Source: Candidatus Latescibacterota bacterium (lineage in GTDB: Bacteria > Latescibacterota > UBA2968 > GCA-2709665). Taken from it: 64,000 bases of DNA. This document shows, piece after piece, positions 4,188 to 9,393 of the stretch (position 1 is the first letter of the stretch; every line of letters begins with the position of its first letter). The DNA lies in the NCBI GenBank assembly GCA_965248435.1, contig OZ252100.1, forward strand, positions 704,001 through 768,000. Direction: 5' to 3'. The notes under the pieces are model-generated. The model did not search any database. It was not told the DNA's origin and saw only the letters and a program-made list of their open reading frames with translations. A program made the translations under genes and the position numbers.

Positions 4188-4230
4188 GGGAAGGTCTGCC
4201 GGATAATTCGCCTTTGGAGAGTATTTGTCT

Positions 4231-5190
4231 ATGAAGAAGAATGCCTATCTCGATTTTGAGCGACCTATCGCCCAGCTCGAAGAGAAGATCGATGAGATCA
4301 AGGCACAAGCGGCCGCGGAGAACTTAGACGTGCGGGCCGAACTGGCCTCTCTCGAGGCCAGGGTTAAGAAGGTGCAGGAAGAGATCTATTCCAACCTGAC
4401 GCGCTGGCAAAAATACCAGCTCTCCAGACACCCACTTCGACCGCACACCCTCGATTACGTCGAGCTTCTTTTAACAGACTTCGTGGAACTGCACGGAGAT
4501 CGCTCCTTTCGAGACGACCCTGCGATGGTTGGAGGATTCGGGCGAATCGACGGTGAGCCCATTATGATCGTAGGCCATCAGAAGGGTCGGAACACCAAGG
4601 AAAACCTTCAGAGAAACTTTGGCATGGCCAACCCCGAGGGATACCGTAAGGCATTGAGATTAATGCAATTAGCTGCGAAATTTTCGTGCCCCGTCCTCTG
4701 TCTGATCGATACACCCGGCGCCTACCCGGGGCTGGGCTCCGAAGAAAGAAGTGTCTCCGAAGCGATCGCTCGAAATCTTTTCGAGATCTCCAGTCTGCCG
4801 ACCCCAGTCATCGTTGCCATCGTGGGAGAAGGGGCCAGCGGTGGCGCAATTGGAATAGGAATCGGGGATCGTATCCTGATGCTCGAAAACGCATGGTATT
4901 CCGTGATCAATCCCGAGTCCTGTTCACTCATTCTATGGCGCAACCGTGATTACAAAGAAGAGGCAGCCGAAGCCATGAAGATCACGGCGCCCGATCTTTT
5001 GGAATTGGGGATCATCGACAAGGTCGTACCGGAACCCTTTGGAGGGGCCCATCGAAATCACGACGAAACGGCCGGGGCATTGAAGCGAGCGGTAGTGGAA
5101 GGCCTGGACCAACTCAGACAGGTTCCCTTGGACCAGCTCGTTCGAATGCGGCGAGAAAAATTCTATCGCATGGGAGTATGGGAAGAGTGA
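4231..5190 (+). CDS. accA: Acetyl-CoA carboxylase carboxyltransferase alpha subunit
   Basis: [60 protein letters not shown]. Confidence 0.97.
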
Positions 5191-5213: not shown

Positions 5214-5246
5214 CAAAAAATGGGCCACGTCAGGTCCATTTTTTTG
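5214..5246. terminator. Intrinsic terminator after accA, bidirectional form
   Basis: AAAAAATGGGCC (5215-5226) pairs with GGTCCATTTTTT (5233-5244), with A and T tracts flanking the hairpin. Confidence 0.8.
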
Positions 5247-5457
5247 TTGTCGGCAGAGATACTACCCTCTTGCCCGACTAACCTATTGTGGCTTCATCTG
5301 CTACTTGAGATTACATTTCACAAACTATTTGAGGCGCGTCCAAAGCCGATTCTCCGTCACGTTTACACTTAAAAATACTTTTTGTATCGATTCGCTTAAG
5401 TTTCAAGATGTTATCTCACCGAGCTTCTTCTTAAGCGAAATTTGTCTCAAATAAGTC

Positions 5458-5486
5458 TTGACTGAAGGCTGTTGTGCATATATATT
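5458..5486 (+). promoter_or_regulatory. Sigma70-type promoter facing the gene-free structured region
   Basis: TTGACT (5458-5463), 17 nt, TATATT (5481-5486) in an AT-rich tract. A second candidate TTGTAT-17-TATTAT lies just downstream. Confidence 0.65.
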
Positions 5487-5576
5487 CTGACTGTTCTGAA
5501 CAAGCCAAAAGCTTGTATGTTATTGTGCAACAATCTATTATAACATAATATGTACGTCCGTTACAACGTTACTCCA

Positions 5577-6182
5577 CTGGGAGGGAAAACGGGGAATCTG
5601 GGTCACCTTTGATTCATCGATGCGGTCGTCTTCCGAAACTGTTGTGATGATCGTAGGCAATCCCTTATCTGTGAACCGGAGGTCGAGACCCTTTGTCTCA
5701 CGAGTACTACCGCAAGTGATTCCAAGGTCAACCTCCCTTAGTCATCGTTTCTCCAACCGACGTTTTCTCACTCACAGAAGTTGATTCAGAAGGCGTTTCT
5801 TGTAGGCTCGGATCTTCATTTGCCTTTTCAGTTTGAATTGGGCGGAATGGAGCGCTGAGGGTCTATCAGGTAAGATCTGTCTCCGGAGGGAGGCAGGGCA
5901 GGTTCTCTGCCGGTCAGCCAAGGCATTATTGGGGGAGATAATTCCTTGAACCAGACCGATAAAATCAGAGAGCTTGGTCTCTCTTCCGATACGTCACAGT
6001 CGAACCTGGATGATGACCCGAAGCCAACTCCATCCGCCCTTTTTTTTTGCCGGATCTGCGGGTGACGAAATCTCTGACATAAGCGACCCACCGGAGTGGC
6101 CTCGTTCGTTATGACGAGAGATGGGGTTCGTGACCAGCGGGTTTGCGGGGTCGAGTGGGGATGGGACGCTGGGCCCCTTTTT
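5577..6182 (+). ncRNA. Candidate large structured non-coding RNA (or tandem ncRNAs), family unassigned
   Basis: No credible ORF. Consecutive stem domains found by eye at 5577-5777, 5783-5839, 5840-6039 (long rod followed by T9) and 6051-6145, then a terminator-like hairpin 6147-6182. Many G-U pairs on the + strand. Promoter upstream. Confidence 0.55.
6147..6182 (+). terminator. Putative intrinsic terminator closing the structured region
   Basis: GGGGTC (6147-6152) pairs with GGCCCC (6172-6177), plus an inner AGTG/CGCT pair, followed by TTTTT. Confidence 0.45.
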
Positions 6183-6375
6183 AAAGCTTTCTAGAAGCCT
6201 GACCGAGATGTCGAAAGACGATCCTATCAGACTGTCCTATTATATGTAAAGCGATTGAAATCGCTAATACTGGCGATTTCTGGCCGATCTGTAACTCATA
6301 AGAATTTGATGGTGAATGAGTTGTATGCCCAAAAGACCCCGAGGGCCAAACGCAAGGCCCCCCAGGCCAGGCCAC

Positions 6376-6407
6376 AAAAAAACCGGCTGAGATCTCAGCC
6401 GGTTTTT
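6376..6407. terminator. Bidirectional intrinsic terminator downstream of the receiver-domain gene
   Basis: Perfect inverted repeat AAAAACCGGCTGA-GATC-TCAGCCGGTTTTT. Confidence 0.85.
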
Positions 6408-6751
6408 CTAAAAGCAGGGTTTACGCTGGAACTAGGAGGTTTCGCCCAGCACCTCATCCACCTTGTAGCTCGCGGACCCAGAGGTTTGAAATCCACCTCT
6501 TCAGCCGTAGAGGAGACCACGATGAAAGGAAGCGAAGGAAAACGCTCCTGAGCAGCCTTCATGAGCTCGAGACCCGTCATGTTCGGCATCTGATTATCCG
6601 TGACGACGAGGTCCACGGCTCCACCCTCTAAAACCTTAAGGGCTTCACGCCCATCTTCAGCCTCAAGGATTTGGACCTCCTCTTCTTCCAGCAACGACCT
6701 GATTACCAGCCGCACTTCAAACAAATCATCTACGATAAGAACCTGTTTCAT
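6395..6751 (-). CDS. Single-domain response regulator (CheY-like receiver), 3' end probably disrupted
   Basis: VLIVDD, EAEDGREAL, DLVVTDNQMPNMTGLEL (phospho-Asp), PFIVVSS. The C-terminus departs from the REC consensus, and an alternative frame gives KVDEVLGETS* ending at 6432. Confidence 0.75.
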   Translation of the reverse strand: MKQVLIVDDLFEVRLVIRSLLEEEEVQILEAEDGREALKVLEGGAVDLVVTDNQMPNMTGLELMKAAQERFPSLPFIVVSSTAEEVDFKPLGPRATRWMRCWAKPPSSSVNPAFRKTG

Positions 6752-6828: not shown

Positions 6829-9213
6829 TTAGGGCCTCGGCAACCAGCCTTCGGCCTTGATGGCCTCCTTACCGACATCGATTCGAATCGCCCCTCTTAG
6901 GTCCGTGCGATAGGTTGTGATCCCCATCACGTCGAACCTTTGAATGACTTCCGGAGCCGGGTGTCCAAAGCGGTTGTTCGTTCCGCAGGAGATGGTCGCG
7001 AGGCTAGGATTCACGGCTTCGAGGAATCTGCGGGTCGAGGAAGTACGTGATCCGTGGTGCGCAACCTTCAGGACCTCGGAATGGAGCCGATCACCCCATC
7101 CAAGGAGGTCTGGGTCCGTCTCTTGTTCGATATCTCCAGTCAGGAGCACCGCCTTCCCTCCATAGGTCAGCCTCAGAACAACAGAGCCGTTGTTCAACCC
7201 ATCCAGCGATACACCCGCTTCCGAGACAAAGTGTGGGTTCGGGTGAAGGACGAGCCCCCCCACCCCACCAAGCCCGACCAGGCTGTCCCCGGCCGCAACG
7301 GCGTAGTACGAGATACCTCTCTCCTGAATCAGGGTCCTGATCCTCTGAGCGGTCCAGGAATCATAACGTTGCCCTGAATCCAGGTAGGCACCGATTTCGA
7401 GCGTCTCGAGCAGCGTCACCAGTCCTCCGATGTGGTCACCGTGCGGATGCGACGCGACCACTACATCGATCCGCTCGATGCCCAGTTCCCTCAGAAAAGG
7501 GACCAGGACACGCTCCCCCACGTCATATCCTTGTTGTCGCACCCCGCCGTCGACAAGCATCGTCCTTCCGCGAGGAGACCTGAGAAAAACCGCATCTCCC
7601 TGACCGACATCCAACACAGTGATCTCCAGATTAGACGGGCGACGAATCAGGTCTTCCCAGACCCAGAGGTTCGCGAACGCGAGCGCACAAAAGGCAATCC
7701 ATTTGCCCACTTTCGGCTGACGAACCTCGGGGAGAACGGTCGTGAGGACGCAGAGGTAGAGTCCAACGAACGCCCACGATGGCTTTGGCACTTCCACGAG
7801 CGCCCAGTCCGGTTCGCCCAGCAGACCGGCACAGGCAATCGCTGCCTTCAACACTGCCCAGATCGCGCCATTTATCAGGATCGCGACCTGTACAAGAGAG
7901 ACCGAAAGGATGGCTGAAAGCAGCCCGAGTGACACTGCAGCTCCAACAAGGGGTACCACAACGAGATTTCCCAGAATCGAAATCGGGGACAGATGTCCAA
8001 AATAGGTCGCGACAAATGGGGCGGTCCCTGCCTGAGCAGCGAGCGAAACGGCAACAGGCATAGAAATCCACTTCTTCCAAACCTGCCTCCCCTGGGGCAC
8101 CCACTCCTGAATGGCCGGGCAGAGTGCGAGGATGGCCGCGGTGGCCGCGAACGAAAGCTGAAAGCCGACGTCGAAAAGCTCCTGCGGCCGATAGGCGAGC
8201 AAGCCCAACCCAGCGACACCCAACGTGTTCAGCCCATCCCCGTCCCGGTCGCTCAGTGCCCCCAGGACAACCAGGGACCCCATGATCGAAGCCCGAAGAA
8301 CCGAGGGGCGAAGTCCCGTCACGAGTGCATACATCAAGACCCCGGCCACAGTCATCACGCCGGTCCATCGCTGCCCTAGGCCGAGGCAGCGCAGTCCAAA
8401 GAAGATGGACGCCGCAACCAGGCCCACGTGCAGTCCAGAAACGGCCAGTACGTGATTGACGCCCGACCTCGCGAACGCCTCTCGGACCTCCTCTGGCACG
8501 CTCCGCTTCTCTCCAAGAAGGAGACCTTTGAGAAGGCCGGCAGGCGCGCCAGAGAGATTCTTATCTACAGATCGACGAACCGTTCTTCTAATGGGCAGGA
8601 TGACCTGCTTCCAGAGCCCATTCCTTCTTCCAGGCCGGATTTCGACGATCTGTCCGGGGTCTCGTACTTTGGCCGTCCCATATATCCCCTTTCGCTCCAG
8701 GTGGCTCCGATAATCGAAGCCTCCAGGATTCCTCGCAGGCTCGGGCCTGCGCAGCCGGACACGGAGGTGTAACGAATCTCCGTATTCGATCTCAGGACCG
8801 GGTGCCTTAAATCGAATCAAGACGGAGCCACAGGTTGAAAATTGCTTTGTGTCCAGCAGGGCGCGTTCAACGTCTAGAACGAGGCTCAAATCATCCCCCA
8901 CCCATTCGGGCTCTCGAGAAACCTCACCGATGATCTCGACCTCACCCCGGGGATCGATCCAGTGGACGATGTGGCGTGGAGGAAGCAGCGTTGCCATTTC
9001 GTAACGCATCATCCCGGAGGAACAAAGAAGAAAGCCGATGTTCCATCCTATCCACCGACCTCTCCACTTTGAGATCGAGCCAACAAGGAGGAGTGAAAAC
9101 GATACCGTTGTAGTGGCGACAGCAGCGGCACCCGGCAATGCCCAGGAATTGCCCAGGGCGATTCCCAGTCCAAACCAGACGGCTGCCTCGAGTGCAGGAC
9201 GTCGACGTCCCAT
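6829..9213 (-). CDS. comEC: DNA-uptake competence protein ComEC/Rec2
   Basis: RNPGGFDY, HVLAVSGLHVG, PSVLRASIM, GFQLSFAAT, LDVGQGDA, SHPHGDHIGG, KVAHHGSRTSS, NRFGHP. ATG at 9213 with GAGGA RBS. Confidence 0.95.
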   Translation of the reverse strand: MGRRRPALEAAVWFGLGIALGNSWALPGAAAVATTTVSFSLLLVGSISKWRGRWIGWNIGFLLCSSGMMRYEMATLLPPRHIVHWIDPRGEVEIIGEVSREPEWVGDDLSLVLDVERALLDTKQFSTCGSVLIRFKAPGPEIEYGDSLHLRVRLRRPEPARNPGGFDYRSHLERKGIYGTAKVRDPGQIVEIRPGRRNGLWKQVILPIRRTVRRSVDKNLSGAPAGLLKGLLLGEKRSVPEEVREAFARSGVNHVLAVSGLHVGLVAASIFFGLRCLGLGQRWTGVMTVAGVLMYALVTGLRPSVLRASIMGSLVVLGALSDRDGDGLNTLGVAGLGLLAYRPQELFDVGFQLSFAATAAILALCPAIQEWVPQGRQVWKKWISMPVAVSLAAQAGTAPFVATYFGHLSPISILGNLVVVPLVGAAVSLGLLSAILSVSLVQVAILINGAIWAVLKAAIACAGLLGEPDWALVEVPKPSWAFVGLYLCVLTTVLPEVRQPKVGKWIAFCALAFANLWVWEDLIRRPSNLEITVLDVGQGDAVFLRSPRGRTMLVDGGVRQQGYDVGERVLVPFLRELGIERIDVVVASHPHGDHIGGLVTLLETLEIGAYLDSGQRYDSWTAQRIRTLIQERGISYYAVAAGDSLVGLGGVGGLVLHPNPHFVSEAGVSLDGLNNGSVVLRLTYGGKAVLLTGDIEQETDPDLLGWGDRLHSEVLKVAHHGSRTSSTRRFLEAVNPSLATISCGTNNRFGHPAPEVIQRFDVMGITTYRTDLRGAIRIDVGKEAIKAEGWLPRP

Positions 9214-9393
9214 ATTCCTCCCCACTGCCCACCGATCCCGTGTACTCACACCCCTCGCACGAACGTGCAATTCCCATACCGCCTCGAAACCTCCCAAAAT
9301 AGGCCGATTCCGAGCCACATAGGGAGGAACATCCCTTTCACTCCCTGAACAGGTCTTTCCCCCTCATCCAGCGAGCGTTTTCCCAATAATTGT

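Follow-up and report, generated by a model that had tools for sequence, protein, structure and literature searches.

A probable non-coding RNA gene between accA and comEC, with a 200-nt rod of 6S-like build that is conserved in an order of Latescibacterota

The described RNAs that come closest in build to the element reported here are the 6S RNAs. Passages of PMC9130861 give their length as about 180-200 nucleotides (nt), and the part of PMC4064990 that deals with their consensus describes a stem that closes the molecule, an internal loop with G-C pairs on its flanks and a stem-loop at the tip. The same passages of PMC9130861 report lineage-specific 6S-related structures that are missed by the general 6S model, 6S-Flavo (RF01685) and Ms1, of which Ms1 binds the RNA polymerase core and not the holoenzyme. 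The element lies between accA and comEC in a 64,000-nt stretch (the window) of the genome of a Candidatus Latescibacterota bacterium (genome G000; contig OZ252100.1, positions 704,001 to 768,000), where a first-pass annotation, made from the sequence alone, had placed one multi-domain structured RNA of about 600 nt at positions 5577-6182. The accA/comEC interval very probably holds an independent structured non-coding RNA gene, with a promoter, a leader followed by a conserved rod, and an end at a run of nine U residues (U9). The promoter would give rise to a transcript of about 550 nt in which a lineage-variable leader precedes the 200-nt rod and which ends at the closing stem and U9. We file the rod RNA as a new family with a 6S-like build that falls in no Rfam family. 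Coordinates of the features are collected in Table 1.

The rod stands out by its fold. The region 5838-6050 has a folding z score of -5.33 on the plus strand and -5.27 on the minus strand, with 0 of 200 shuffles as good in either case. The whole of 5577-6182 gives z -2.62 on the plus strand (0 of 20 shuffles as good) and z -1.81 on the minus strand (1 of 20), and this signal comes almost wholly from the 200-nt rod. In an alignment of 34 rod sequences, 88.6% of the cells of 66 pairs are paired, versus 35-48% when the 3' partners are moved by 1-3 columns, and 57 of the 66 pairs show changes on both sides; the observed values were reached by 0 of 500 shuffles, in counts in which related rod sequences are not independent of one another. 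Eight compensatory pairs are already present in a MAFFT alignment of five rods. Comparison of the sequences indicates that the rod helices are kept by compensatory changes, by a margin that is large despite the fitting of the alignment. The same 66 pairs hold 372 G-U cells versus 126 A-C cells; because G-U cells outnumber A-C cells and plus-strand terminators lie behind the rod in every lineage, the plus strand is favored as the strand of the RNA.

The sequence of the rod is almost invariant in three places: the ends of its closing stem, the UGC in the 8-nt strand of an internal loop, and the apical GGGGGAGAU. The apical loop GGGGGAG is found in all 51 distinct rod sequences, and the apical GGGGGAGAU (5931-5939) is at least 98% conserved. 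The internal loop is asymmetric and lies at roughly a quarter of the height of the rod, 41-48 nt from the 5' end of the rod. The central six bases of the 8-nt motif on its 3' side are self-complementary. Motif positions 2 and 7 hold AU in 30 of the 51 sequences, GC in 13 and GU in 7, and are unpaired in 1; at 3/6, as at 4/5, complementary bases are found in 50 of 51. This palindromic pattern could reflect a two-pair mini-hairpin or the pairing of two RNA molecules. The window's own genome is alone among the sequences in having UACG, not UGCA, at the center of the motif.

The rod is present in a single copy in G000. BLASTN searches of 40 relatives matched 5440-6046 at 73% identity in the one other species of the genus (G001) and the rod alone in three genomes of other genera. 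A covariance model built from five rods (R1) matches 51 of the 53 genomes of the order, with one sense match each; a second match in genome G004 is the antisense of the first. No R1 match was obtained in two genomes of genus g5 (80% and 94% complete), both of which lie outside the sample searched with R3, a model built from 34 rods. In that sample of 151 genomes of the phylum, R3 matches all 18 members of family f1 and all 30 of family f2, the two families of the order, and 0 of 102 genomes outside them. The only genome with two copies is G048, in which near-identical rods lie on contig 1 near 34 kb and near 5.92 Mb of 5.94 Mb; the two copies may reflect the untrimmed overlap of a circular assembly and not a genuine duplication. 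A repeat or mobile element was rejected as an explanation of the locus, the 761-nt query being present once in G000.

Beyond the order, a counterpart was located by synteny in a genome of the sister family f3. There accA is followed by the same promoter, a 165-nt leader and a 168-nt rod (z -4.9) with the same GGGGGAG apical loop, which scores 20.8 bits on R3 (E 1e-4 in a small search). Searches of family f4 with strict filters gave no rod (R1, 0 of 76 genomes; R3, 0 of 64); in four f4 genomes other genes follow accA, and a promoter-pattern scan of five f4 genomes found three places, none of them with a rod. A pattern scan of named genome records yielded 39 loci; the titles of 32 read Latescibacterota or Latescibacteria. 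Nine of the 39 were scored by the models and seven matched; the two that did not are titled Chryseobacterium and Spirochaetota. The corresponding scan of metagenome contigs found nine loci, which consist of three full rods and six chance matches to the apex only. The gene order accA, rod and comEC on the opposite strand is retained in genera g1, g3, g4, g6 and g11, and in g2 the gene upstream of the rod unit is not accA.

Signals at both ends set the rod and its leader apart as a transcription unit. The promoter matches the consensus at 10 of 12 positions and predicts a transcription start at about 5493. Each of the 17 genomes examined has a promoter of the form TTGAC-N17-19-TAnAnT before the rod, at distances of 99-610 nt: 99 nt in g6, 200 in f3, about 270 in g3, 380 in g1 and g11, 428 in g4 and 560-610 in g2. 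A plus-strand terminator lies behind the rod in all 33 sequences inspected, as a T run directly after the closing stem of the rod in g1 and g3 and as a separate G+C hairpin and T run about 10-40 nt behind the rod in g2, g4 and g6 to g11. Similarity between G000 and its sister species G001 stops at U9, position 6048.

The exact form of the promoter, TTGAC-N16-TATATATT, is very rare, with 0-2 occurrences per genome, and is found only twice in the 5.67-Mb genome G000. The second occurrence there (contig 1, about 4080305-4081700) precedes a 131-aa open reading frame (ORF) of GntR type, which is followed by an ORF resembling an ABC-transporter ATPase, both assigned by eye. This occurrence was considered as a second RNA-gene promoter and rejected, as it drives the GntR-like and ABC-transporter genes instead. 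In f4 genomes (G062 and G094) the exact form fronts tRNA genes or clusters in two of the three places found in five genomes scanned. The exact form seems to mark stable-RNA genes in the class, which accords with a housekeeping type for the rod RNA. Upstream of the promoter, blocks within 5290-5457 are identical or nearly identical in G000 and G001 and recognizable in g2 to g4, and the RNA gene may have UP elements or regulator sites in them. The A/T-rich block next to the -35 box (Table 1) may likewise be a UP element or a regulator site.

The neighboring genes leave the interval free. Upstream, accA occupies 4225-5190 on the plus strand (Pfam ACCA, E 9e-142), and the sequence of A run, hairpin and T run that follows it is also present in the aligned g3 genomes. 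Downstream, a receiver-domain protein (response regulator, 6395-6751) and comEC (6829-9318) are encoded on the minus strand. About 1.1 kb without a credible gene remains between the hairpin with T7 at 5214-5246 and the hairpin with T5 at 6376-6407. The longest ORFs of the interval are 87, 64 and 54 aa, and a Pfam search of four interval ORFs (87, 98, 64 and 54 aa) gave no family. A protein-coding origin was rejected on this result and on the frame of the 54-aa ORF at 5620-5784, which is broken in G001 by indels of 4, 5 and 7 nt.

Sequence archives provide evidence that the unit is expressed. Six runs recorded as RNA hold part of the stretch, and four of them, from four studies, yield metatranscriptome contigs 95-99% identical to the window. 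These span 5525-6033 (depth 17), 5773-6035 (depth 16), 5562-6016 (depth 20) and 5586-5912 (depth 49); the first, third and fourth of these bridge leader and rod. In two of the contigs an Illumina adapter follows directly after 6033 and 6016. No contig of the four RNA runs covers 5300-5494 or 6041-6073, a result that, coming from contigs, cannot prove absence. The limits of the RNA contigs agree with a start at about 5493 and with the U9 terminator, and leader and rod lie on one molecule. Among DNA runs, those with between a fifth and a quarter of the sampled words are labeled marine or seawater metagenomes. The first-pass annotation receives support on several counts. The interval of about 1.1 kb without a credible ORF between two terminators was read as described, with both hairpins present and no ORF longer than 87 aa; the near-consensus TTGACT-17-TATATT promoter lies at 5458-5486; the 200-nt rod folds far better than shuffled sequence; G-U over A-C cells and the strand of the terminators agree with its plus-strand RNA; the predicted transcript is represented by contigs of four studies over 5525-6035; and its failure to recognize a known family is borne out by the searches that follow.

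Rfam 15 gave 0 matches at gathering score in the whole window. At E<=10 the 1.25-kb region gave only chance-level hairpin matches such as mir-725 and RMST_8, and at E<=1 the 17 homologous loci gave 0. The signal recognition particle (SRP) RNA, RNase P RNA and tmRNA of G000 were found elsewhere in the genome, with 72.1, 303.4 and 205.6 bits, and were rejected as identities of the region, which none of the three models matches. The bacterial SRP (4.5S) RNA, a housekeeping RNA, resembles the rod in shape and in the conservation of its internal and apical loops; the rod differs in having no GNRA tetraloop, no SRP loop motifs and no Rfam match. The 6S RNA is the one common housekeeping RNA that is unmatched in G000. 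Its model RF00013 finds none there at E<=10 and matches 0 of the 53 genomes of the order at E<=1, and the 6S-Flavo model also finds none in G000.

Elsewhere in the phylum, canonical-looking 6S RNAs are present in families f9 (5 of 6 genomes) and f12 (1 of 1), in genomes G145, G141, G160, G136, G153 and G149. They score 22.7-43.2 bits on RF00013, and since its gathering score is 46.4 bits, standard annotation would miss them. Like the rod, these RNAs come from the same phylum, are of similar size (176-180 nt) and are rods ending in a U run. They differ in a wide central bubble with a small hairpin on each of its strands and in a match to RF00013 over the full length, and they have no GGGGGAG loop. 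Nor do the two kinds cross-match. A model built on the 6S-like RNAs of f9 and f12 (R2) finds nothing in G000 or in other families, although for G000 the empty answer is uninformative by the tool's own warning, and R1, run with filters off on the six f9/f12 loci, gives only terminator-level matches of at most 14 bits.

The likeness of the rod to 6S RNA lies in its architecture and in its behavior as a gene. At 200 nt the rod falls in the size range of about 180-200 nt, and 51 of 53 genomes have one match each. It forms an extended, irregular hairpin in which a closing stem is followed by a G-C-flanked internal loop and a terminal stem-loop, a strong promoter drives it together with a 5' leader, and its assembly in the RNA libraries of four studies hints at abundance. 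E. coli 6S RNA is cut from longer precursors, and in canonical 6S RNA the 5' strand of the bubble lies at a distance from the 5' end similar to the 41-48 nt of the rod loop. These features tentatively suggest a 6S-like mechanism, in which the rod is a protein-binding housekeeping RNA and possibly a stand-in for a 6S RNA that the searches did not find. On this view the RNA would be abundant, work in trans and bind a conserved partner, most likely the RNA polymerase holoenzyme, as 6S RNA does. Its two long irregular helices would then occupy the place of promoter DNA, and the internal loop 5881-5887/5988-5995, with G-C pairs at its flanks, would act as the open bubble. The 6S-Flavo and Ms1 RNAs provide precedent for a divergent 6S analog. 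Ms1 differs from the rod in its length of about 300 nt and its extra end hairpins, and 6S-Flavo is unmatched both in G000 and in the all-Rfam scan of the region.

Several observations weigh against a 6S-like rod. No 6S model gives it a score, either in the region at E<=10 or in the 17 loci at E<=1. Its internal loop measures only 3-7 by 8-10 nt, beside a helix that covaries, so that there is no large bubble as in the f9 and f12 6S RNAs. The apical loop of the rod is invariant, a feature that is not known from 6S RNAs and that therefore suggests another or an additional partner. The absence of a 6S match is itself a weak argument because family f4 has neither a 6S match nor a rod match (0/64, 0/76 genomes). 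The pair counts derive from an alignment fitted to the model structure, which is a bias in favor of structure, and the RNA evidence consists of assembled contigs, from which strand, exact ends and abundance cannot be read and in which DNA carry-over is possible. The setting also differs: the rod has accA and comEC as neighbors, and 6S RNA has ygfA.

The invariant loop lends itself to a different account, which we regard as somewhat doubtful. The rod could be a trans-acting RNA that sequesters or scaffolds some other conserved protein, with RNA polymerase uninvolved, and the partner would read the invariant G-rich apical loop and the internal loop centered on UGCA. Invariant single-stranded sequence is typical of protein recognition, and the occurrence of GGGGGAG(AU) in 51 of 51 sequences, the nearly fixed 8-nt loop motif and the failure of the rod on the 6S models are all in line with such a role. 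Against it, no candidate partner is encoded next to the rod, and for its neighbors accA and comEC no such RNA partner is known. A single hairpin also makes a poor sponge, and the classic binder of GGA loops, CsrA (PF02599), was not found in G000 at E<=0.01, in a genome that is 97.5% complete. A sponge of the CsrB/RsmZ type was rejected on the same basis, there being a single conserved GGA-bearing loop and no CsrA in the genome.

Also unlikely, and more so, is the proposal that the order has replaced canonical 6S RNA with an unrelated rod of a new class, which combines a Shine-Dalgarno-like apical loop with a palindromic loop and works by an undescribed mechanism. Under such a replacement two rods might pair through the palindromic loop, whose positions 2 and 7 covary as AU, GU and GC, or the RNA might dock on the 3' end of 16S rRNA, which would be a new way of linking polymerase or ribosome control.

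The extent of the unit bears on the original proposal of a single large RNA of several domains, about 600 nt long (5577-6182) and akin in class to OLE and ROOL, or of a processed tandem set, which now appears decidedly unlikely. With OLE, ROOL and GOLLD the locus shares a non-coding, structured transcript, of about 550 nt in the genus of G000. A large RNA would also agree with the contig 5525-6033, which joins leader and rod, with leader blocks common to family f1, and with leader hairpins that covary in g3 (8 sequences; the only genus examined). The leader is otherwise variable. It is about 73% identical between G000 and G001, with indels of 6, 4, 5 and 7 nt, can be aligned only within f1, and there only in part, and ranges in length from about 65 nt in g6, where it is nearly absent, to about 580 nt in g2. 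In G000 it folds no better than shuffles (z -1.30; 10 of 100 as good). The segment 6049-6186, situated past the terminator, has z -2.28, a value matched by 5 of 200 shuffles; no RNA contig connects it with the rod, and it cannot be aligned with the sister species, in which the GGGGTC/GGCCCC hairpin is absent. Most of 6049-6390 is missing from that species, and two RNA-library contigs of depth about 5 lie there, at 6074-6278 and 6237-6389. Rfam gave no match to a large RNA, whether OLE, ROOL, GOLLD, HEARO or another, and only 200 nt, folded as an unbranched rod in place of many domains, are conserved.

The first-pass annotation is accordingly revised in several respects. A structured plus-strand RNA in which leader and rod are joined remains from its promoter-to-terminator unit; one conserved multi-domain RNA of about 600 nt does not. 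The limits 5577 and 6182 give way to a start at about 5493 and an end of similarity at 6048, with RNA contigs ending at 6016-6035. The fourth domain and the GGGGTC/GGCCCC hairpin fall behind U9 and outside the unit, and membership in the OLE/ROOL size class is not upheld, since conservation across the order is confined to the 200-nt rod and no Rfam match exists. The expected excess of folding over shuffled sequence is found in the rod and is lacking in the leader, with an intermediate value for 6049-6186 and a value for the whole that comes from 20 shuffles. Conservation and covariation in relatives hold for the rod (51 of 53 genomes, 57 of 66 pairs); the leader can be aligned only within f1, and the fourth domain is not conserved.

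A very unlikely reading takes the apical loop for a Shine-Dalgarno mimic that pairs with the 3' terminus of 16S rRNA; the RNA would then act on 30S subunits, for example in ribosome storage or silencing or in maturation of the 16S 3' end. The 16S rRNA of G000 ends in ...GGAUCACCUCCUUUCU (also given as ...CACCUCCUUUCU), pairing of GGGGGAG with CUCCUUU by hand gives four Watson-Crick pairs (GGAG/CUCC) and three G-U pairs, and an invariant loop suits an invariant partner. This pairing is nevertheless short, rich in G-U and no better than that of many chance G-rich loops, and it leaves the 200-nt rod and the second conserved loop unexplained. Most improbable is a cis element, either a long structured terminator or insulator that separates the convergent units of accA and comEC or an untranslated 3' part of the accA message: the accA-rod-comEC order of five genera (g1, g3, g4, g6 and g11) and the ending of the rod in a terminator would suit it, but a conserved promoter 99-610 nt upstream belongs to the rod itself, accA ends at a separate terminator (5214-5246), no RNA contig covers 5300-5494, the upstream gene in g2 is not accA, and a terminator needs no 66 covarying pairs or invariant loops. 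The 3' end of accA was rejected as a candidate on the first two of these grounds.

Table 1. Features of the accA/comEC interval, in window coordinates. G000, the window's own genome; G001, its sister species; g2 to g4, other genera; f1, family of the order.
Feature	Position	Strand	Description
Hairpin and T7	5214-5246	+	accA terminator; upstream limit of the RNA unit
A/T-rich conserved block	5438-5457	+	Abuts the -35 box; identical in G000 and G001, recognizable in g2, g3 and g4
Sigma-70-type promoter	5458-5486	+	TTGACT at 5458-5463, 17-nt spacer, TATATT at 5481-5486
5' leader (domains 1-2 of the first-pass annotation)	5493-5839	+	Transcribed with the rod; partly conserved in f1
Core rod (former domain 3)	5840-6039	+	200 nt, unbranched; about ten short helices with small internal loops between them
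Internal loop, 5' strand (candidate bubble)	5881-5887	+	C-rich, 3-7 nt across lineages; largest conserved internal loop
Apical hairpin	5925-5942	+	Loop GGGGGAG at 5931-5937, then AU
Internal loop, 3' strand	5988-5995	+	8-nt motif; family consensus GAUGCAUC, GAUACGUC in G000
U9 run	6040-6048	+	Intrinsic terminator with the G+C-rich closing stem of the rod; RNA 3' end
Former domain 4 and last hairpin	6049-6186	+	Behind the U9 terminator, outside the conserved unit
Perfect hairpin with A run and T run on its flanks	6376-6407		End of the response-regulator and comEC genes

A literature search found no paper in which Latescibacteria or Latescibacter is tied to structured RNAs or 6S RNA. In a preprint of 2026 on noncoding sequence space, the text covered by the search mentions 6S RNA once in passing; its supplements, which lie outside that search, could list the rod family.

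No member of the phylum Latescibacterota has been cultured, and the RNA biology of the phylum is unexplored. The rod RNA is single copy, strongly promoted, order-wide, present in RNA libraries and uncatalogued, and it is thus a concrete new family for RNA databases and genome annotation. If it is a 6S analog, it would show how far a promoter mimic can drift, to a small bubble and a fixed apical loop, and it would explain the apparent lack of 6S RNA in most of the phylum. If it is not, it is a housekeeping-type RNA whose partner is to be found, and its two invariant single-stranded motifs offer a handle for binding work.

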